A program made the position numbers and the translations under genes. The notes below the pieces were generated by a model. It was given only the letters and a program-made list of their open reading frames with translations, was not told the DNA's origin and ran no database searches. DNA of 64,000 bases from an uncultured Candidatus Saccharibacteria bacterium. GTDB lineage: Bacteria; Patescibacteriota; Saccharimonadia; Saccharimonadales; JAGQNJ01. The stretch is from positions 5,915 through 69,914 of the forward strand of contig CAZOUW010000002.1 of assembly GCA_964583075.1 (NCBI GenBank), read 5' to 3'. This document shows, one piece after another, positions 31,755 through 39,756 of this stretch (its first letter is position 1; each line of letters opens with the position of its first letter).

Positions 31755-31934
31755 ATCAACCGTGATTATGCTTTTATAACAAGCATTGTAACGTAAACCA
31801 TAAAATAATAATACACAGTGAAAACTTAACAATAAAACCCCCTGAAAAGGAGGCCTGTTGTGTTGGTGGACCTAACCGCGCAGCAACTGAAACAGGGACC
31901 CCTAAGGACCCCTGCTGTTTCAAGTAACAACTAT

Positions 31935-32220
31935 TTGGTGCCTCTATACGATGAGGTTAGAACCTATTTTATCTCAAAAAGCTGAAAAGCGAGAACCTAA
32001 GCTCAGCCCTGCTGCCTTGCGGGCAAGTCTGCCCGTTGCGCCCCGCCAGAAAACCGCCTTTGAATTTTTAGATTTTCCCGCCGTTCCTTATTTTTCTAAA
32101 TGAAAAGTCGGTATTTTTGTCGGTTCGCCTGCGCATAGCGCAGAAGTGGCTGGGGCTTGGCTGGTTAATATTACAAGTATGTGCGTTAGATCACTCACAG
32201 TGTTTTTAAGTATTTTTGTT
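31935..32220. repeat. IR1-L: 286-bp inverted repeat, exact reverse-complement of 36194..36479
   Basis: A manual reverse-complement comparison of this stretch (ggtgcctctatacgatgaggttagaacc...cagtgtttttaagtatttttgtt) against IR1-R found no mismatch. Its outer end is ttggtg. Confidence 0.9.
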
Positions 32221-32661
32221 GGCTTTTTTATGCCGTCGGATTTCTATGAACGTAAGTGCCGTAATGACCAGGAAAGACAAAAAAGACATAAAAGGAATAG
32301 TGATAAAACCAAACCAGTTAATCTGCGGTACGGCACAAGAACTATCTATTGAACAAGTTTTAATTGCTTCTTCTATTATGCCCCATTGTAAGAGTGAATG
32401 GTAGAAAGCGATCATCGATCCGACAAGGCTAAGCGGCAACACATAATAGGCCGCATTATTGTCTTTACGGTAAACACCGACACCTAATATAAATGCGAGT
32501 GGAAACATAAATATCCTTTGATACCAACACAAGGCACACGGTACCAAATCCATCACCTCACTAAGCACCATACTGCCTAGTGAAGCCCCGATTGCTACTA
32601 GCCAAGCAATAAAAACCAAATTATTTAAAAACAAAGTATGTATTTGTTTCGTTTTAATCAT
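32206..32661 (-). CDS. disulfide bond formation protein B (DsbB/BdbC family, quinone-dependent thiol oxidase)
   Basis: The internal start MIKTKQIH gives 151 aa. There are 4 TM helices, a CALCWYQR motif in periplasmic loop 1 and a second Cys pair (CSIDSSCAVP). The longer ORF 32206..32718 overlaps the upstream gene. Confidence 0.75.
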   Translation of the reverse strand: MIKTKQIHTLFLNNLVFIAWLVAIGASLGSMVLSEVMDLVPCALCWYQRIFMFPLAFILGVGVYRKDNNAAYYVLPLSLVGSMIAFYHSLLQWGIIEEAIKTCSIDSSCAVPQINWFGFITIPFMSFLSFLVITALTFIEIRRHKKANKNT

Positions 32662-32674
32662 ATATTTTATTCTA

Positions 32675-33847
32675 CTATTGTTTGCAGACTGGACAAACTT
32701 CTTCCTCGACAAACCCATACCGCCAGGTGATTAAAGCCTTCCGCAGTGGAAGAAATGATAGATATAATTTGAAGTCAGCCAACCGTCTTAATAGCCACCC
32801 TAACCGTCCATAGATACGAACCTTCCCCCACAGTACTGCAGCCCAATGCGGACCGACTGGGATAGCATAAATTGGGCGTTTCGGTTTATAACTATATAAG
32901 GTTTGTCTTTTCGATTTTCTAAGCAAGTTTTCTGCAACAAATTTTGCATCGTGAATTGCGGTCTGCGCCATACCAGCGTAGGTAGTCGAGGCACTGTCGC
33001 CAATCACATAGATATTTTGGTTAGCTTGGAGAAATTGATCTACCTCAACTCGACCTGACTTACCTTGCCTAAACAGTTTTCCAGATTGACTAAAAAATGG
33101 GTTATTGACTACTCCCGCTGTCCATATAACGGTATGTGACTTGATCGGTCCTCTAGGTAAGTAAATGCCATCGAGTGTCTCTGATTTAACTGATGCTTCC
33201 AGCTTAGTCTTTACGCCCACCTTTTTAAGCCGATTTAGAACGTCAGTCGAAAAATCTTCTGGCATTGAAGCAAGAACCCTAGGAGCAGCTTCAACTAAAT
33301 TAACCGTAAAAGGGGCTTTTATCTTGTGCTTTTTTCGTATCTTTTTTAGATATGCTACCAGTTCAGCACTGAGTTCCACGCCGGTTGCTCCAGCTCCGAT
33401 CACCACATAATTTCTTTCCGTCTCTGTAGCCAACAACTGTTCATGCATATGGCGTTTTAGCTGTAATGCTTCGTGAACCGTCTTCACACCGTAAGAGAAC
33501 CTCTCAAGCCCCCTGATATTATAAAATTCGGTCACATTACCCAACGCTAGTATCAGCTCCTCATATGTATACTTCGAGCCTGATTCGCCTGAAATAAACT
33601 TTTTTTGTTTGTCGATTGTTGTAACTGTGTCCTCAATTACCTCAACATTTTTTGCATAAGCAAAAAAATCACGCAGCGGTATGGCTACTTCTAGTGGCGA
33701 ACGTCCAGTAGCTGATCGATACAGCGCAGCGTGATACTCAAAATAACTCTGGCTAGAAATCAATTTTACTTCCACTCCTGATTTATTCGACAAGGATAAT
33801 GCAGCTCGTACACCACCAAACCCGCCGCCAACAATAACGACCTTCAT
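32675..33847 (-). CDS. ndh: type II NADH:quinone oxidoreductase (NDH-2) / FAD-dependent pyridine nucleotide-disulfide oxidoreductase
   Basis: 390 aa with two Rossmann GxGxxG motifs (VVIVGGGFGGVRAA; VVIGAGATGVE) and NDH-2-like architecture. Confidence 0.8.
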   Translation of the reverse strand: MKVVIVGGGFGGVRAALSLSNKSGVEVKLISSQSYFEYHAALYRSATGRSPLEVAIPLRDFFAYAKNVEVIEDTVTTIDKQKKFISGESGSKYTYEELILALGNVTEFYNIRGLERFSYGVKTVHEALQLKRHMHEQLLATETERNYVVIGAGATGVELSAELVAYLKKIRKKHKIKAPFTVNLVEAAPRVLASMPEDFSTDVLNRLKKVGVKTKLEASVKSETLDGIYLPRGPIKSHTVIWTAGVVNNPFFSQSGKLFRQGKSGRVEVDQFLQANQNIYVIGDSASTTYAGMAQTAIHDAKFVAENLLRKSKRQTLYSYKPKRPIYAIPVGPHWAAVLWGKVRIYGRLGWLLRRLADFKLYLSFLPLRKALITWRYGFVEEEVCPVCKQ

Positions 33848-35506
33848 TTAAAAACTCTTTCTGATGTGGATTTGCGAAAACTCCAAACTAGCATCGGTTT
33901 TTTTGTGTGGATTAAATATGTTATCAGGATCAAACAGTTTCTTCACAGTTTTGAATATCTGCATCATTTCTGGAGAGTACATATACTCAAGCATCGGACC
34001 ACGTATCATACCGTCGTTATGCTCACCAGATAACGAGCCATTGTATTGTAATACCAAATCCGTAACCTCTTCGAGAGCTGGATATATCTTGTGTCTTTCG
34101 GATTCAACACGTAAATCCATTAGTGGGATGATATGGAAATTTCCATCTCCCATATGCCCAGCAACGGTGTAAAGCAATTTATATCGCTCTAATATTTCGG
34201 TTAAGCGTGGTAAAAATTCAGGTAGCGTTTCCGGAGGTACTATCAAGTCATCAATAAAAGGGGCGGTGTGTTTACGTTTAACGTTTTTTCTAAGCAAGTT
34301 AAAGCTTTCTCGGCGCATTGTCCAAAACTTCTCTTCCTGATGCCTATCTTCGGCCAATTGGGTCTCAATGTTCTTACTCTGCATCATCTGTTGTAACTGA
34401 TGTATCTTTCTGTCTATTTCATTTTGTTCTGTAGCTTCAAACTCGCACAAGAGGATTATTTTTGGAAAACTGGGCAAAAACCGAAGTAAATGTTTTAAAA
34501 CTGGTAAGAAACTTAAGCCAAGTAATATAAACCGCTTCCAACCTAAAGTTTTACGAAAACTAAAGAAAAACCTGAAAGCAAACTTGAGTGTATGGTCGTC
34601 AAACGACTCCAAACTTGTTGGCCTCATTGGCAATATATCGTTAATTATTTCACCGAGTCCATCGAGATTTTTTAGAAAAATCACTACCATCCCCGAGAGT
34701 GGCTTAGCCGGAACAAGCCGAAAAGTAGCTTCAGTTATTAGACCCAGTGTACCCTGAGAGCCAACGATGATCTTTGTCATGTCAAACGCTTCTCCGTCCC
34801 AAACATCCCAAATATTGTAAGCAGTTGAGTTTTTGCTGACCTTGGGCTTTGATGCCTTAATTATTTCTTGATTTTCCGTGACCAATTTATAAATCCCACG
34901 GTATAAATCGCCTTCTAAACCAGTCTCGTTTAACTTTTGTTTCAATGTTTTTTTATCAATAGCTTGAAATGTATGCTCTTTGCCGTCTCTCAGCACAATC
35001 TTGACCTGTTTTACATACCGATCTGTTTTGCCATATATCAGAGATTTTTCACCGCCAGCATTGTTTGCCACCATACCACCGATCATACATAAATCTTTTG
35101 ATGCGGGATATGATGGCATTATTAACCCCTGCTCCAATGTCTTGGGTTCAAAATCACGATAGTAAACGCCAGGCTGTACGGTAACTTCATTATCTTTGAT
35201 TTGCCCAACCTGTGTAAAGTAGCGCCCATATGCCACGATAATAGACTCGTTAATAGCTCCGCCGGACATATCTGTACCGCCGCTGCGACCAGTCAGTGAA
35301 AGATCAGGGTGCGATAGTTTATTCTTAGACACATGTTCTACTAGGTTGCAAATGTCTGTTACGTCTCGTGGATAAGCTATTGCTTCAGGTTTAATCTCAA
35401 ACAAACTGGCGTCGTGGCTATATAAACCACGCGCATGTCTATCTACTTCTATATTGCCCTTGAAAAATCTTTTGATGTCCTCGTGGAGGTGGGTAAATTT
35501 ACCCAT
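33848..35506 (-). CDS. FAD-linked oxidase (FAD_binding_4 + FAD-oxidase C-terminal domains; GlcD/D-lactate dehydrogenase-like)
   Basis: 552 aa with TGRSGGTDMSGGA in the PCMH-type FAD-binding domain and a C-terminal FAD-oxidase domain. Confidence 0.7.
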   Translation of the reverse strand: MGKFTHLHEDIKRFFKGNIEVDRHARGLYSHDASLFEIKPEAIAYPRDVTDICNLVEHVSKNKLSHPDLSLTGRSGGTDMSGGAINESIIVAYGRYFTQVGQIKDNEVTVQPGVYYRDFEPKTLEQGLIMPSYPASKDLCMIGGMVANNAGGEKSLIYGKTDRYVKQVKIVLRDGKEHTFQAIDKKTLKQKLNETGLEGDLYRGIYKLVTENQEIIKASKPKVSKNSTAYNIWDVWDGEAFDMTKIIVGSQGTLGLITEATFRLVPAKPLSGMVVIFLKNLDGLGEIINDILPMRPTSLESFDDHTLKFAFRFFFSFRKTLGWKRFILLGLSFLPVLKHLLRFLPSFPKIILLCEFEATEQNEIDRKIHQLQQMMQSKNIETQLAEDRHQEEKFWTMRRESFNLLRKNVKRKHTAPFIDDLIVPPETLPEFLPRLTEILERYKLLYTVAGHMGDGNFHIIPLMDLRVESERHKIYPALEEVTDLVLQYNGSLSGEHNDGMIRGPMLEYMYSPEMMQIFKTVKKLFDPDNIFNPHKKTDASLEFSQIHIRKSF

Positions 35507-35516
35507 TGATTACCTC

Positions 35517-36056
35517 CTATTCGAGTATTGGAAATCGTTTGACCAAAGACTGTTTAACCCACCAGCTCCGCAAACCCCAAACCTGTCTGTCATTTGCAGC
35601 TAACAAGCCCAGTAAGACCACGGAGTAAATGACGTGATCGTCTATAATCGGGTTATTTTCAGGTAATATCATTGCCGACCACATCATCATAAACAGCAAT
35701 ACCCCTGAGATTGTTGCTATTCTCATACCGATACCGGCTATTAGTGCAAACCCAATAAGCAAAAGTCCTGCCATAAACAGTACATCAACAAAGGTATTGC
35801 CAGCTAAGCCCTGATAGAAATCAGCAAATGGTCCCTTAGTAGCAAATTCTAAGAATCCAGTGGTTGGTGAACCACCGTTTATCCAAGCTTTTTCACATAA
35901 CATAGTTACAGTATTAGTTTCGGCATCTCGACAGGTAGCGAAGCCTAGGCCAAGCAGCTTATCGAAAAATGCCCACAACAGCGTGAATCCGAGTAAAATA
36001 CGAGCCATTGCCCAGAAGTATGGTGATTTATCATTTGTTGAATTTTGTTTTGCCAT
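35517..36056 (-). CDS. DoxX-family membrane protein (quinone-interacting, TQO small-subunit-like)
   Basis: 179 aa with about 4 TM helices. RILLGFTLLWAFFDKLLG is a DoxX-like N-terminus. Confidence 0.6.
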   Translation of the reverse strand: MAKQNSTNDKSPYFWAMARILLGFTLLWAFFDKLLGLGFATCRDAETNTVTMLCEKAWINGGSPTTGFLEFATKGPFADFYQGLAGNTFVDVLFMAGLLLIGFALIAGIGMRIATISGVLLFMMMWSAMILPENNPIIDDHVIYSVVLLGLLAANDRQVWGLRSWWVKQSLVKRFPILE

Positions 36057-36193
36057 ATTAATCCTTGCTTAACGTTAACGCTTATCTATAGTAAGTATAG
36101 CTTCAGAAGCTTTTATATTCAAGATTCAAGTGCTGGGCAGAGCCATTAATAACCACTTACTTTATAGCGCTAACTCTGACTGTTAGAGTGCTT

Positions 36194-36479
36194 AACAAAA
36201 ATACTTAAAAACACTGTGAGTGATCTAACGCACATACTTGTAATATTAACCAGCCAAGCCCCAGCCACTTCTGCGCTATGCGCAGGCGAACCGACAAAAA
36301 TACCGACTTTTCATTTAGAAAAATAAGGAACGGCGGGAAAATCTAAAAATTCAAAGGCGGTTTTCTGGCGGGGCGCAACGGGCAGACTTGCCCGCAAGGC
36401 AGCAGGGCTGAGCTTAGGTTCTCGCTTTTCAGCTTTTTGAGATAAAATAGGTTCTAACCTCATCGTATAGAGGCACCAA
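36194..36479. repeat. IR1-R: 286-bp inverted repeat, partner of 31935..32220
   Basis: Perfect reverse-complement match to IR1-L. Its outer end ...gaggcaccaag fuses directly to IR2-L. Confidence 0.9.
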
Positions 36480-36610
36480 GAAAGTACTAAAATCGGAATT
36501 GCGGCGCAAATGCGCCGTTTTTTCTTTGGTTGCGCGAAGCGCCAACCAAGGATTTTTCAGAGGGGGAGAAATATTTGGGGCGGCCGCTGGCTGCGCCTTC
36601 TTGGATTTTA
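36474..36610. repeat. IR2-L: inverted copy of tRNA-Leu 3'-flank, its terminator, and the recombinase 3' end (partner 38155..38295)
   Basis: Sequence caccaagaaagtactaaaatcggaattgcggcgcaaatgcgccgttttttctttggttgcgcgaagcgccaaccaaggatttttcagagggggagaaatatttggggcggccgctgg is the reverse-complement of 38155..38295 with about 3-4 mismatches at the distal end. It includes an orphan hairpin+T7 terminator at 36503-36524 on the plus strand. It encodes a 75-aa minus-strand ORF (36429..36656) that mirrors the recombinase C-terminus. Confidence 0.85.
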
Positions 36611-36643
36611 GACCGCCATTGGTGGTTTTTGCTATACTGGAGT

Positions 36644-36726
36644 TGGACACAATCAAAGCGGAATAGCTATTTTAATTGGCTCAGATAGCCGTCTCGTACA
36701 ATTTGGTTATTCCGGATTGTGTCCAG
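36644..36726. promoter_or_regulatory. 12-bp inverted repeat pair (ttggacacaatc ... gattgtgtccag) upstream of the recombinase gene; candidate operator/recombinase binding site
   Basis: 11/12 match, separated by 59 bp, ending about 30 bp before the recombinase ATG. The palindrome aatagctatt also lies between them. Confidence 0.3.
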
Positions 36727-36757
36727 CGAGGCGGCTATTTGAGTTCAAGGGGGTGTT

Positions 36758-38503
36758 ATGAGTAAGTGGTACACTTATGCTAGAAAATCAACAGACGTTG
36801 AAGATAAACAAGTTTTATCCATTGAAGCACAATTGGTTGAACTCCGGGAGTTTGCCAAGCGAGAGGGTTTAGATATAGCCGCCGAGTTTGTCGAGAAACA
36901 ATCCGCTAAAAGTCCAGGTCGTCCGGTTTTTGGCAAATTACTGACTGAAATTGAAAAATCTGGCGGTAATATACTCGCTTGGCATCCAGACAGGCTTGCC
37001 CGCAATTCCATTGACGGCGGACAGATTGTCTACTTACTGGACAGTGGCAAGCTGGACAACCTGAAGTTCCCGTCATTTTGGTTTGAAAATACTTCTCAAG
37101 GCAAATTTATGCTGAGTATTGCTTTTGGTCAAAGCAAATACTATGTAGACAATCTGTCCGAGAACACCAAGCGTGGACTTCGCCAAAAAGTCCGAATGGG
37201 ACTTTATCCGGGCTGTGCGCCCGTTGGATATATAAATGATGTCCGCAGTAAAAGCATTGTCATAGACAAACGGCTTGCGCCGGTTGTTGTTTCCGCTTTT
37301 GAGCTGTATGCCAAAGGCGAGAGCCGGCTGGAAGATATTGCAGTTTTTCTTAAAAGCAAAGGCGTTGCCACCAAAAGCGGCAAACAACTAAGCAAAGACC
37401 AGATCAAACGGATATTGACCAATCCGTTTTACTACGGACACTTCAAATTCTTAGGCGAAGTCCACGAGGGCAAGCATAAACCAATTGTGCCTAAAAAACT
37501 GTTTGACCAAGTACAAACAGTTTTAAGCCGTAGAGGGCGACCACAAAAAGGAAAAACCACCCCGCAAATCTTTTGCGGTTTGCTGGCCTGCGCTTCTTGC
37601 GGATTATCCGTAACTGGCGAGCACAAAATAAAACGTCAGAAAAATGGCAATATCCATGAGTATATTTATTATAGGTGCACCAAAAAGCGCAAAGATTTCA
37701 AATGCTTAGAACCTGCTGTTACCCAAAGTGATTTAACAGAGCAATTATCTAGCTTATTGACTGAATATGCCATGCCAAAGGCATGGGCCAGCAAACTTGA
37801 AGCTATGCTTCAAGAAGATGAAAAGGAAGTCAACCAAACTGTTTCAGTGTTTGTAGCTAACGCCCAAACACGACTTGTTAGTTTGCAAGGTAAACTCCAG
37901 CGACTTTTAGATGGTTATTTAGACCAAGACATTGAGCAAAGTGTTTATCGAGCTAAACAAGCTGGGTTGATGTCCGAGAAAAAGTCGCTGGAAGAGCAAG
38001 TCAGCAAACTCACGCTTGCCGGAAGCAGTTGGATAGAACCTATGCGCCAATGGATAAAACAGGCTGTTTCAAACGGTGAAACAGCCAAAAAAGCCGAGCC
38101 AAGTGCCATAAAGGAAGCACTAACTAAAATGGAAGGATTGAACCTATTTCTAAAATCCAAAAAGGCACGGCCAGCGGCCGCCCCAAATATTTCTCCCCCT
38201 CTGAAAAATCCTTGGTTGGCGCTTCGCGCAACCAAAGAAAAAACGGCGCATTTGCGCCGCAATTCCGATTTTAGTACTTTCTTGGTGGGCGAGAAAGGAC
38301 TTGAACCTTCACGCCTTGCGGCACTAGTTCCTAAGACTAGCGTGTCTACCAATTCCACCACTCGCCCACGATACCAAATTGTTAAATACCGATGTATTTT
38401 ACCCTATGCGACGGTAAAATACCAGTGTCGAATCGCCATACTCTTTCTTTGTCCTCAAATTAAAACCCTCGCCAAGATTCACTTCGACATCTGGTGGAAG
38501 TGA
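36758..38503 (+). CDS. large serine recombinase (resolvase catalytic domain + recombinase domain + zinc ribbon); 3' ~350 nt of ORF reads through att-like repeat and antisense tRNA-Leu
   Basis: 581-aa ORF. The N-terminus YARKSTDVEDKQ...LAWHPDRLARN carries the serine-recombinase catalytic Ser and Arg motifs. Recombinase-domain and Cys4 zinc-ribbon motifs (CGLLACASCG...YYRC) follow. The C-terminal part after about aa 465 overlaps IR2-R and tRNA-Leu and is probably not native coding sequence. Confidence 0.8.
   Translation: MSKWYTYARKSTDVEDKQVLSIEAQLVELREFAKREGLDIAAEFVEKQSAKSPGRPVFGKLLTEIEKSGGNILAWHPDRLARNSIDGGQIVYLLDSGKLDNLKFPSFWFENTSQGKFMLSIAFGQSKYYVDNLSENTKRGLRQKVRMGLYPGCAPVGYINDVRSKSIVIDKRLAPVVVSAFELYAKGESRLEDIAVFLKSKGVATKSGKQLSKDQIKRILTNPFYYGHFKFLGEVHEGKHKPIVPKKLFDQVQTVLSRRGRPQKGKTTPQIFCGLLACASCGLSVTGEHKIKRQKNGNIHEYIYYRCTKKRKDFKCLEPAVTQSDLTEQLSSLLTEYAMPKAWASKLEAMLQEDEKEVNQTVSVFVANAQTRLVSLQGKLQRLLDGYLDQDIEQSVYRAKQAGLMSEKKSLEEQVSKLTLAGSSWIEPMRQWIKQAVSNGETAKKAEPSAIKEALTKMEGLNLFLKSKKARPAAAPNISPPLKNPWLALRATKEKTAHLRRNSDFSTFLVGEKGLEPSRLAALVPKTSVSTNSTTRPRYQIVKYRCILPYATVKYQCRIAILFLCPQIKTLAKIHFDIWWK
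38155..38295. repeat. IR2-R: partner of 36474..36610; spans recombinase 3' end, tRNA-Leu terminator and tRNA-Leu 3' terminus
   Basis: Near-identical inverted copy. Its outer end ...gtactttcttggtg corresponds to the complement of the tRNA CACCA 3' end. Confidence 0.85.
38236..38258 (-). terminator. Rho-independent terminator downstream of tRNA-Leu
   Basis: Hairpin ggcgcaaatgcgcc followed by TTTTTT on the minus strand, about 25 nt after the tRNA 3' end. Confidence 0.55.
38283..38367 (-). tRNA. tRNA-Leu (anticodon TAG), 85 nt including encoded CCA
   Basis: Manual fold: acceptor GGGCGAG/CTCGCCC, U8, 3-bp D-stem GTG/CAC with GAATTGGTAGA loop, anticodon stem CTAGT/ACTAG with loop CTTAGGA (anticodon TAG), a long 13-nt variable arm, and T-arm GAAGG-TTCAAGT-CCTTT, followed by ACCA. 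Confidence 0.85.
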
Positions 38504-38932
38504 TATAACCACCATACCCCCTAGTTTGGTACATTGTGATACTTTCTGTACCCGGGTAATGCTTACATCGTCATACGGCGGGTCACACACAACAATATCA
38601 AAGTATTTGTCGGGGTTATTATCTATCCAAGAAGTTATGTTCGCTCGAGTTACCTTCAATGACGCGTCCAGATTTTTAGAATTTGTGCTGATTACCTCAG
38701 AAGCCTTCTTGTCTGAATCTATTGCAACCACGCCCACAGCTCCCCGACTAATTGCTTCAAGGGCAATCGCACCACTTCCACTATAAGCATCTAGCAGGGT
38801 CAGGCCAGATATATCACCCAGTATATTAAAGATCGCTCCACGCATCTTTTCGCTCATTGGGTGAGTTTTATGCCCACTTGGAGAGTCAAAAGTTCTGCCA
38901 CCTAACCTGCCAGCAATAACCCTCAATCTCAC
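38399..38932 (-). CDS. rsmD: 16S rRNA (guanine966-N2)-methyltransferase RsmD
   Basis: 177 aa with a SAM-binding motif LDAYSGSGAIALEA and the DPPY catalytic motif. Confidence 0.8.
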   Translation of the reverse strand: MRLRVIAGRLGGRTFDSPSGHKTHPMSEKMRGAIFNILGDISGLTLLDAYSGSGAIALEAISRGAVGVVAIDSDKKASEVISTNSKNLDASLKVTRANITSWIDNNPDKYFDIVVCDPPYDDVSITRVQKVSQCTKLGGMVVISLPPDVEVNLGEGFNLRTKKEYGDSTLVFYRRIG

Positions 38933-39756
38933 TCCTCGATCTCCGGAGTAATCAACTTTGCCTCGACTAATGCCAGATACCAGATTAATGCCACCGTACG
39001 CGCAATCGTCGGCGCAAGCTTGCTACGTACATCGACTATTAGCTTCGTAGACCAACCACGCTTCCTAAAGCGTTCGTACATATCAAGAACGGCAATTTCG
39101 CGAGCTGTGCGACGAAACAGCTCTAGCGGACCAACATCGAGTGCTGTAGCGATCTCGTGGTCTTTGGGTGCAGCCATACTCATACCGAGTGGCGCGATTA
39201 TTGTTGCAATTCCAATCTCAAATAAACCGTGCGTCGACATTAAACCTTTTGGTCCATAAACCTTCCAACTCCGCTTTATTGTTTCACGTTTCGTGGCACC
39301 TTGCGGAATAACTTTCTTACGGAAGGTTGTACGCGTTTCTTTAGCCTCTCCACGTATTTCGCTTAACTTTTCTTCGTAAGGATAGTGATGAGCGGGTGTC
39401 AGCCCATCAACGATAGCGTGCGCCAACCATGCAGCCTCAAAAGCAATGCGCTCTTGGTTATTTTTCTTTAATTCCTTTACTAACTGATTATAGTGATCAT
39501 GGATCAAGTCAATGAGCTCTGAGTCATTATTATCAAATGGACTGTAATAATGCCAGGGCTCATCTTTGGCCGGACTCTTGCGCTTAATTGCGTCAGGTCC
39601 CTTCCTACCTTCAAAATGTAAGATTTTTTTAGCGGACGGGAAAAGCTCTTTTTTTGGCAAAAGTTTCGCCAGTTGCTTACGAGCAACTCTGTCTAGTTTC
39701 TGGTGTGCACCGAGAATGCGGCCAGACATAGGTGTCAATGTTGTTCCAGAATACAT
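38929..39756 (-). CDS. hypothetical protein (His-rich motifs; possible zinc-dependent hydrolase/phospholipase-C-like fold)
   Basis: 275-aa ORF. AWLAHAIVDGLTPAHHYPYEE contains clustered His/Asp. No confident family assignment was possible. Confidence 0.4.
   Translation of the reverse strand: MYSGTTLTPMSGRILGAHQKLDRVARKQLAKLLPKKELFPSAKKILHFEGRKGPDAIKRKSPAKDEPWHYYSPFDNNDSELIDLIHDHYNQLVKELKKNNQERIAFEAAWLAHAIVDGLTPAHHYPYEEKLSEIRGEAKETRTTFRKKVIPQGATKRETIKRSWKVYGPKGLMSTHGLFEIGIATIIAPLGMSMAAPKDHEIATALDVGPLELFRRTAREIAVLDMYERFRKRGWSTKLIVDVRSKLAPTIARTVALIWYLALVEAKLITPEIEE

Follow-up and report, generated by a model that had tools for sequence, protein, structure and literature searches.

Paired inverted repeats around a large serine recombinase gene probably delimit a mobile element at tRNA 3' ends in Patescibacteria

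The DNA analysed here is a stretch of 64,000 nucleotides (nt), hereafter the window, from an uncultured Candidatus Saccharibacteria bacterium (GenBank assembly GCA_964583075.1, contig CAZOUW010000002.1, positions 5,915 to 69,914 of the forward strand). In it the gene of a large serine recombinase (LSR) runs convergently into a tRNA-Leu(tag) gene, and two pairs of long inverted repeats, A and B, surround the LSR gene and four neighbouring genes that we call cargo. A preliminary description made from the letters alone had noted that the 3' end of the recombinase gene is duplicated in inverse orientation. The features are listed below in window coordinates; a caret (A^, B^) marks the inverse copy of an arm, and att denotes recombinase attachment sites.

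31833..31934, minus strand: X, the presumed native trailer of the tRNA-Leu, 6.35 kb from the tRNA, with a hairpin and terminator-like site at 31856-31835
31935..32220, unstranded: A^ arm, far copy; outer end TTGGTG (reverse complement of CACCAA), then a T-arm-like motif; trailer-proximal end, attR side
32206..36056, minus strand: cargo of four genes (Pfam marks on locus L092 and on the window)
32206-32718, minus strand: DsbB-like gene, cargo
32675-33847, minus strand: Pyr_redox_2 oxidoreductase, cargo
33848-35506, minus strand: FAD_binding_4/FAD-oxidase_C protein (FAD-linked oxidase), cargo
35517-36056, minus strand: protein of 179 amino acids (aa) with no family match, cargo
36194..36479, unstranded: A arm, internal copy; its final 29 nt mimic a tRNA 3' end (GGTTC.A..C ... 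CACCA)
36474..36612, unstranded: B arm, internal copy, with a terminator hairpin at 36501-36518 and a T run
36429..36656, minus strand: open reading frame (ORF) of 75 aa, a by-product of the internal copy, which reads B^ into A^ and ends ..LVPLYDEVRTYFISKS
36609-36638 (with TG) and 36644-36673, plus strand: two promoter-like sites upstream of the LSR gene, consensus matches alone
36758..38503, plus strand: LSR ORF, 581 aa as read; residues 464-510 come from B^, residues 511-581 are read-through into the antisense of the tRNA and of the rsmD 3' end
38149..38287, unstranded: B^ arm, tRNA-proximal end, attL side, with a terminator at 38260-38243 (minus strand) and a T run
38283..38367, minus strand: tRNA-Leu(tag), whose last 5 nt (CACCA) are shared with B^ and lie within the common core
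38399-38932, minus strand: rsmD-like methyltransferase gene (PF03602), convergent

A repeat search of the window gave the inverted repeat B, 139 nt long, with arms at 36474-36612 and 38149-38287 that stand 1536 nt apart. The arms are complementary at 136 of 139 positions (98%), the three mismatches lying at positions 119, 121 and 127 counted from the outer end, and the 53-nt core of B was found exactly twice in the 64-kb window and not once in 100 shuffles. The right arm forms codons 464-510 of the 581-aa LSR ORF. The 75-aa ORF comes from the minus strand of the left arm, and in it the LSR-tail peptide is followed by divergence (...FLV, then PLYDEVRTYFISKS); no Pfam family matched this ORF. 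The inverse copy of the recombinase 3' end and the repeated, then diverging tail peptide were thereby confirmed. The same holds for the statement that the copy carries the hairpin and T-run terminator of the tRNA-Leu, as a terminator-like hairpin GCGGCGCAAATGCGCCGT followed by TTTTTCTTTG is present in both arms, at 36501-36518 (plus strand) and at 38260-38243 (minus strand).

The right-arm terminator lies 23 nt downstream of the tRNA-Leu. The tRNA is intact (Rfam tRNA score 58.4 bits), and its 3'-terminal 5 nt (CACCA) are at the same time the outermost 5 nt of the right B arm. B^ thus gives the tRNA a replacement terminator. The internal copy puts a second one between cargo and LSR, oriented against transcription from the cargo side; this would be the sole concrete function assignable to the internal B copy. 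The terminator had been called an orphan, which it is not, being a constant part of that internal copy.

The preliminary description missed a larger repeat that abuts B, and with it the nested structure that is found across the family. This second inverted repeat, A, is 286 nt long and 100% complementary; its arms (31935-32220 and 36194-36479) stand 3973 nt apart and bracket the four cargo genes. The hexamer CACCAA (36474-36479) belongs both to the right arm of A and to the left arm of B, and the left arm of A begins TTGGTG. On the plus strand the order is trailer X, A^ (31935-32220), the four-gene cargo, A.B (36194-36612), LSR, B^ (38149-38287) and the tRNA-Leu on the minus strand. Followed in the reading direction of the tRNA, it is tRNA-Leu ...CACCA, B, LSR (antisense), B^.A^, cargo, A ...CACCA and native trailer. 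All three junctions carry CACCAA, which is the tRNA discriminator plus CCA, and read from the sequence the outer two cores are direct and the internal core is inverted. No additional copies of A or B were found within the window, and the G+C content of the element (0.41-0.47) was not distinct from that of the flanks (0.43-0.44). We consider it probable that the A and B pairs together delimit an integrated mobile element of 6.35 kb, window 31935-38287, which is driven by the LSR.

The 3'-terminal part of A, about 30 nt, is kept between elements as AAAATAGGTTC(G/T)AGC....TGTA......CACCA. Its GGTTC lies 29-25 nt from the end, as compared with 25-21 nt for the T-loop GGTTC in a real tRNA, a shift of 4 nt. 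As for LSR sites that have been characterised, the distance from the centre to the zinc-ribbon-domain motif is some 5 bp greater in attP than in attB half-sites. By this comparison the A end may be a P-type version of the tRNA half-site. That the flank in A is a tRNA remnant was rejected, because the register of its T-arm-like motif is off by 4 nt and neither ARAGORN nor Rfam gave a tRNA. A further T-arm-like motif (antisense GGTTCAATCC) was seen at 38134-38149, just inside B^; its codons specify the conserved GLNLF in the final beta-hairpin that is predicted with confidence for the LSR. The motif pairs at 14 of 16 positions with the tRNA-mimic motif 36445-36460 at the A end, either by chance or as a shared recognition motif.

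Among known RNAs, Rfam matched nothing in A or B but the tRNA at E<=1. The alignment fold of A amounted to -3.2 kcal/mol, and covariation was confined to an inverted repeat of 18 nt, which behaves as a DNA repeat as well. This repeat of 18-20 nt inside A (CCAGAAAAAC..CTTT / AAAG..GTTTTTCTGG) flanks a segment of about 47 nt (window equivalent about 36296-36384), and its pairing is preserved across elements through compensatory changes. Its left arm resembles the core plus the start of B (CACCAGAAA..) and marks the inner, cargo-side edge of the A arm in most loci. In locus L018 the segment of about 47 nt is flipped between two copies of one element (2554-2636 versus 1666-1748 in the far copy; L009 was also compared).

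LSR homologues of 515-650 aa number in the thousands, mostly from Saccharibacteria and other Patescibacteria. Our sample of relatives consisted of 80 genome loci with 43-80% identical LSRs, one 100% identical contig and the window, 82 loci in all. The B pair was present in 75 of the 82 loci, near-perfect and often 100% identical, and was mostly 70-147 nt long unless cut by a contig end. In these loci the LSR gene has one arm upstream of it, and its final codons are made up by the other. A convergent tRNA overlaps the outer end of B^ by 3-8 nt (mode 5) in 57 loci, with 25 tRNA species represented; contig ends truncate most of the remaining loci. Among loci with sufficient left flank, 29 showed the A pair. 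It measured mostly 85-290 nt where complete, bracketed 0.6-4.8 kb of unrelated cargo and overlapped B by 4-11 nt where both ends were in view.

The cargo differs in nearly every related locus, and the LSR alone is conserved. A unit carries 1-4 metabolic, regulatory or restriction-modification genes, for example those of an alanine racemase, dehydrogenases, an MFS transporter or a restriction-modification system. No replication, transfer or excisionase candidates were found in the cargo of related loci, and single-protein patterns gave no relatives in viral contigs. The arms are homogenised within an element and divergent between elements, with mismatches clustered in the inner fifth of the arm (87 of 154), a pattern of concerted evolution. 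As many short-read contigs end exactly at the arms, the design is easily overlooked. In a dozen independent short-read assemblies of the window strain (L082-L094, L100-L102) the contigs stop at the A or B arms or inside the tRNA.

LSR units of the Patescibacteria type were also met among contigs in public bins that do not carry a label of the candidate phyla radiation (CPR), namely at L003, L008, L020, L031, L042, L044, L046, L052 and L056 and likewise at L065, L068, L069, L073, L074, L075, L077, L078 and L080. The labels of those bins were Acinetobacter, Gammaproteobacteria, Pseudomonadales, Clostridia, Spartobacteria, Opitutaceae, Verrucomicrobia, Lentisphaerae and Desulfobacterales. Mis-binning of short contigs is probably the reason, to which a horizontal spread of the units beyond the CPR may be the alternative.

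The outer boundaries of the element could be read by comparing loci. Between the window and L001, which comes from a different sample, identity is 100% over the stretch that begins at the inner edge of the A arm, includes B^ and stops at ..CTTGGTGGG; past this point the window runs into tRNA-Leu and L001 into tRNA-Val. On the left, more than 20 loci have a far A arm with the end ..CACCA(A), after which comes locus-specific sequence, usually with a canonical hairpin and T-run terminator, and in L030 the 5' end of the next tRNA follows beyond the far A arm. Since the sequence beyond the far A arm looks like a native tRNA trailer, the element occupies exactly the place between the tRNA's CCA end and the original terminator or trailer. 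The core common to the three junction types is 4-10 nt long. In the Saccharibacteria clade it invariably contains the discriminator plus CCA (CACCA, TACCA, GAGCCAA, AGCCAA), and in a distant clade it is TCAC(C); such a core would fit a serine-recombinase crossover within NCCA. Long direct att repeats, of the kind made by a partial tRNA copy, were not found at the two ends: in direct orientation the ends share the 4-10-nt core alone, and the long repeats are inverted.

Four loci (L012, L016, L017 and L021) share HD-domain and methyltransferase genes with 77-90% identity and stand at Leu-gag, Leu-taa, Arg-cct and Leu-cag tRNAs. Their trailers are unrelated, and no common stretch of >=150 nt was found beyond the tRNA. 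In L021 the cargo is inverted relative to the other three. As judged from these sequences, the whole unit appears to be mobile between tRNAs. Locus L095 (1367-10250) holds a tandem array in the order A1.B1, LSR1, B1^, then A2^, cargo, A2.B2, LSR2, B2^, formed by two different units. The cargo between its LSRs is a restriction-modification pair (N6_N4 methyltransferase and ResIII helicase/nuclease), and LSR1 reads into A2^. Because the second unit has integrated against the outer end of the A arm of the first, the junction of A with the trailer seems to act as a secondary target at which arrays form.

The rsmD and tRNA-Leu genes of the window (38282-39255) were met again in L090 (955-1041), from a different sample. 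There the 3' strand of the tRNA, ..CCTTTCATCCCCACCA, mismatches the 5' acceptor strand GGGCGAG at two positions. Beyond it comes a different trailer, which has a terminator of its own (AATCAAGTGCCGACCGTTTGGTCGGTTTTTG..). L090 might represent another element, a tRNA that has recombined or a chimera of assembly; its trailer had 0 matches in metagenome contigs.

The protein has the domains of a large serine recombinase: Resolvase (PF00239, E=2.7e-20, residues 5-148), Recombinase (PF07508, 4.8e-17, 174-259) and a zinc ribbon (PF13408, 8.7e-07, 272-328). Residues R9, K10, S11 and T12 were invariant across 35 LSR homologues. In the AlphaFold2 model long helices span residues 341-445 (341-388, 394-424 and 426-445) with a predicted local distance difference test (pLDDT) score of 77-91; a beta-hairpin at 463-472 is the last confident structure, and from about residue 475 the pLDDT is below 50. 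The preliminary description had proposed an alignment to a characterised large serine recombinase for the true C-terminus. With A118 integrase, the only solved relative, the alignment to its C-terminal domain puts the end of the fold near residue 465, and the model puts it near 472. Thus the functional LSR most likely ends near residue 472 as modelled, and the remainder would be a tolerated extension.

Through the whole B^ arm the LSR frame stays open in each of 64 loci, whereas the two alternative frames do so in 16 and 20 of them. The stop codon is always supplied by the flank, and none lies inside the element. This supports the earlier suggestions that the native stop is replaced on integration and that the 3' end of the recombinase gene overlaps its att site at the tRNA. 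Differences per codon position were 0.34/0.31/0.34 in the B-encoded tail and 0.24/0.17/0.49 in the core of the protein. By this measure the tail appears to be conserved as DNA, that is as att site and terminator, without constraint at the protein level, and the absence of stops would be the only visible constraint. We speculate that the exclusion of stops brings the end of translation onto the att site and thereby lets the LSR act in cis. In the window the stop-less frame extends as far as the antisense of the final ~35 codons of the rsmD-like gene (38399-38503).

After ...LV the tails of the homologues follow the antisense of the adjoining tRNA, which gives G[LIV]EP.. peptides in 86 of 120 clusters. 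A tail conserved over the tRNA would have spoken for a full-length product of 581 aa; instead the tails follow whichever tRNA adjoins. In ~18 of the 120 clusters (~15%) the protein ends ..LV-x-[FLI]Y-x-x-ART[YH]F-xxxx and a stop, which is B^ translated into A^ and matches the ending of the 75-aa ORF. Homologue P0062, which ends ..ELYNSARTYFISKS, has the same type of ending. An alternative C-terminus, as claimed for the 75-aa ORF, therefore does occur among homologues, but it is the reading of the joined ends: the ..ARTYF.. tail is the ending expected for the LSR if its gene were on an excised circle or part of an array. L095 is the one such case with enough context, and its tail is due to the tandem second unit; the other clusters of this type are on contigs that are too short. 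ARTYF tails as proof of a flipping LSR segment were for this reason rejected, L095 being a tandem array of two different units.

If A and B delimit one mobile element, the LSR would recombine the joined ends A/B, equivalent to attP, with the tRNA end and trailer, equivalent to attB, by a short crossover inside NCCA, and the tRNA would be regenerated. The A end would serve as a mimic of the tRNA T-arm and acceptor, and after integration the A/trailer junction would again resemble a target and allow tandem stacking. The internal A.B would repeat the joined ends intact and in inverse orientation, so that a circle formed by excision would hold two inverted repeats of ~420 bp that divide an LSR segment from a cargo segment, in the manner of the 2-micron plasmid, and integration would change the LSR C-terminus from ..LYxxARTYFxxxx and a stop, as on the joined ends, to an arbitrary antisense-tRNA tail. 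Because the outer cores are direct and the internal core is inverted, excision of the whole unit would be possible between the two outer junctions, and recombination of the inner junction with either outer one would lead to inversion only. The inverted internal copy would thus permit inversions and no gene loss; the two orientations in which cargo was seen (L021 versus L012, L016 and L017) are consistent with this polarity. In the chromosome the internal copy would most plausibly act as an insulator, since its terminator faces the cargo, and maybe also as a spare donor site.

The same observations could be carried further, to an integron-like, Patescibacteria-wide gene-cassette system built on a serine recombinase. 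It would comprise a stop-less LSR that ends in its own att site, a tRNA-mimic arm that renews the target, arrays that grow at tRNA ends, and donor-type and product-type sites made equivalent by the internal inverted copy. The sites (tRNA-like)/b and (tRNA-like)/anything, b being the B half-site, would be equivalent, and integration, excision and module swapping would be one reversible reaction without a directionality factor. We put this forward as a tentative extension, to be taken as possible at best. More remote still is a variant in which the long inverted arms let single-stranded DNA from natural competence fold back into a double-stranded att site, by analogy with CTX phage.

Several points weigh against a single LSR-driven element. 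The similarity between LSRs tracks that between B arms (Spearman 0.74) and hardly that between A arms (0.26). The empty site (rsmD, tRNA-Leu...CACCA, ATAGTTGTTACTTG..., GH114) had 0 matches in metagenome contigs; exact-protein look-ups for rsmD and GH114 gave nothing but contigs that break at the arms, and an 84%-identical GH114 relative (L098) was not syntenic. A free circular form was not found in the same look-ups of strain contigs and metagenomes. The half-sites a and b are not visibly symmetric, unlike those of characterised LSR attP sites, and the trailer half-site is arbitrary. Equivalent attP copies on the circle predict an LSR that faces either way, but the LSR is almost always convergent with the tRNA, the LSR segment having one orientation in ~73 of 75 loci. 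The function proposed for the internal copy, finally, is deduced from the layout. As regards orientation, L022 (2631-2837) was the clear exception among the loci examined: a tRNA-Arg adjoins the B arm on the LSR 5' side, opposite to the usual arrangement, with the right side cut by the contig end. L069 (2564-2753), in which no repeat was detected, likewise has a tRNA upstream of its LSR, a tRNA-Trp at a distance of ~115 nt. Such arrangements could stem from integration via the internal copy, from a flipped LSR segment, or from an inversion with end points in the internal copy and a second tRNA.

As A similarity, in contrast to B similarity, barely follows the LSR, the modules A/cargo and B/LSR reassort, presumably at the core. 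The same correlations suit an explanation in which the two were separate from the start: an insertion-sequence-like B-LSR-B^ (1.8 kb, with 139-bp terminal inverted repeats and a palindromic circle junction) placed between facing tRNA-like ends, and an independent A^-cargo-A cassette with tRNA-mimic ends. To judge from the sequences, the sites b/b and a/t would then be dyad-symmetric, as LSR dimers prefer, and the LSR unit of L095 does stand between two different A arms. A single insertion would, however, leave cores in the same orientation, and the A/B and B^/tRNA cores are mutually inverted. Every readable left junction shows a conserved A-type flank, or at least a (N)GTTCGA-type motif left of B, with the exception of L022, which has a tRNA there; the LSR orientation relative to A.B is constant; and no locus was found with B-LSR-B^ at a naive tRNA directly followed by a native trailer. 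We therefore regard two separate modules as doubtful. A 1.8-kb insertion sequence with 139-bp terminal repeats as the whole story was rejected, because the left flank is conserved and repeated farther left.

The LSR might instead be a programmed DNA invertase, the repeat pairs being inversion sites that switch the cargo or the recombinase C-terminus (phase variation) without mobility. Such a role would account for cargo in both orientations, for the flipped 47-nt segment inside A in L018 and for the ..ARTYF.. tail in ~15% of the homologue clusters. With identical arms, though, flipping leaves both cargo flanks the same and changes no promoter or coding sequence, the tail in L095 is explained by the tandem array, and the nearly uniform orientation of the LSR segment is not what switching would give. 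One unit was moreover found at different tRNAs, and the protein is of the large serine integrase type and not of the Hin/Gin type. Altogether, inversion without mobility seems unlikely.

The preliminary description had seen a classic integration footprint, in which an att site in the 3' end of a gene is duplicated once by integration and an orphan copy is left behind. The gene 3' end does coincide with the element end at the tRNA, and the stop codon does come from the flank. Classical att duplication gives direct repeats at the element ends, however, with few shared bases in the case of serine integrases; here the repeat is 139 nt long, inverted and internal, lies between cargo and LSR, is accompanied by the second, 286-nt repeat and is kept in at least 75 loci over 43-100% LSR identity. 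A simple footprint is thus very unlikely. An assembly artefact (a fold-back chimera) or a chance repeat, which the frequent breaks of short-read contigs at the arms might suggest, can practically be dismissed, as the layout is present in 75 independent assemblies including the complete chromosome L004 (CP064994.1) and contigs >1 Mb, none of the 100 shuffles gave a match, and the arms agree within each element and differ between elements.

Taken as one LSR-driven mobile element, the structure can be compared with known systems. It shares with LSRs and serine integrases of the A118/LI, Bxb1 and phiC31 type the set of domains and the long coiled-coil helices, and its junctions share few bases, as for a 2-nt crossover. 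It differs from the LSRs of phages and islands in having no phage or island backbone and no candidate directionality factor, in its target, which is the 3' extreme (NCCA) of many tRNAs instead of one attB, in the half-sites, of which one joined-end half-site mimics a tRNA and the trailer half-site is arbitrary, and in the intact inverted copy of the joined ends kept inside and the ORF without its own stop. Tn4451 (TnpX) and Tn5397 (TndX) insert at loosely defined targets with a GA dinucleotide, and they are not known to have long inverted repeats or to target tRNA ends. As in these transposons, a small cargo element has an LSR as its sole mobility protein, no gene resembling an excisionase is conserved, and a circle of joined ends is presumed; the core here is NCCA and not GA. 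By analogy, the element would work most like these two serine-recombinase transposons.

Long identical inverted repeats that separate two flippable unique segments are known from the yeast 2-micron plasmid and the C-segment of phage P1, and the 0.6-kb repeats of P1 have their crossover sites at the outer ends. The element is likewise split into two flippable segments. The 2-micron plasmid uses the tyrosine recombinase FLP and P1 the small serine invertase Cin, and their roles are copy-number control or host-range switching, not tRNA-integrating cassettes. In the integration-dependent immunity of mycobacteriophages, attP lies inside a gene, and a repressor or a tyrosine integrase with a degradation tag is altered. 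Here too integration would alter the C-terminus of an element protein, which is the LSR itself, with a tail that appears free of protein-level constraint. An insertion sequence with terminal inverted repeats does not describe the element, since the outer ends A^ and B^ are unrelated and the cargo amounts to 0.6-4.8 kb. Nor does an invertase of the Hin/Gin/Cin kind (~190 aa, C-terminal helix-turn-helix, switchable segment), as the LSR has at least 470 aa and flipping alters no junction.

The tycheposons of Prochlorococcus are also cargo elements of streamlined genomes that sit at tRNA genes and build tRNA-side islands, a minority of them with an LSR, but 910 of 937 carry tyrosine recombinases, their ~40-nt att motifs have partial tRNA direct repeats, many have replication genes, and each integrase is specific to one of seven tRNAs (bioRxiv 10.1101/2020.12.28.424599). 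The paper describes no inverted-repeat layout; "inverted repeat" appears in it once, in a reference title (bioRxiv 10.1101/2020.12.28.424599). Five traits would then set the present element apart from all systems compared: its site at the NCCA of many tRNAs, the tRNA-mimic arm, the conserved double inverted repeat, inside which the joined ends are present as an inverted copy, the lack of its own stop codon, and its restriction to Patescibacteria among the examined loci. Full-text literature searches gave no description of this layout; their coverage was incomplete, so an earlier description elsewhere is possible.

For recombinase biology, the family offers an LSR with a natural target in every cell (tRNA T-arm plus NCCA), no apparent directionality factor and a gene end fused to its att site, three properties that are relevant to genome engineering with LSRs. 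Inverted arms of ~140 nt and of 170-290 nt break short-read assemblies at these loci, which fragments CPR bins and hides the elements. The Patescibacteria have tiny genomes and few recognised mobile elements, and their exchange of accessory genes is poorly understood. The LSR element family is abundant and occurs at at least 25 tRNA types, and it may be a main route of gene-cassette flux in the CPR.

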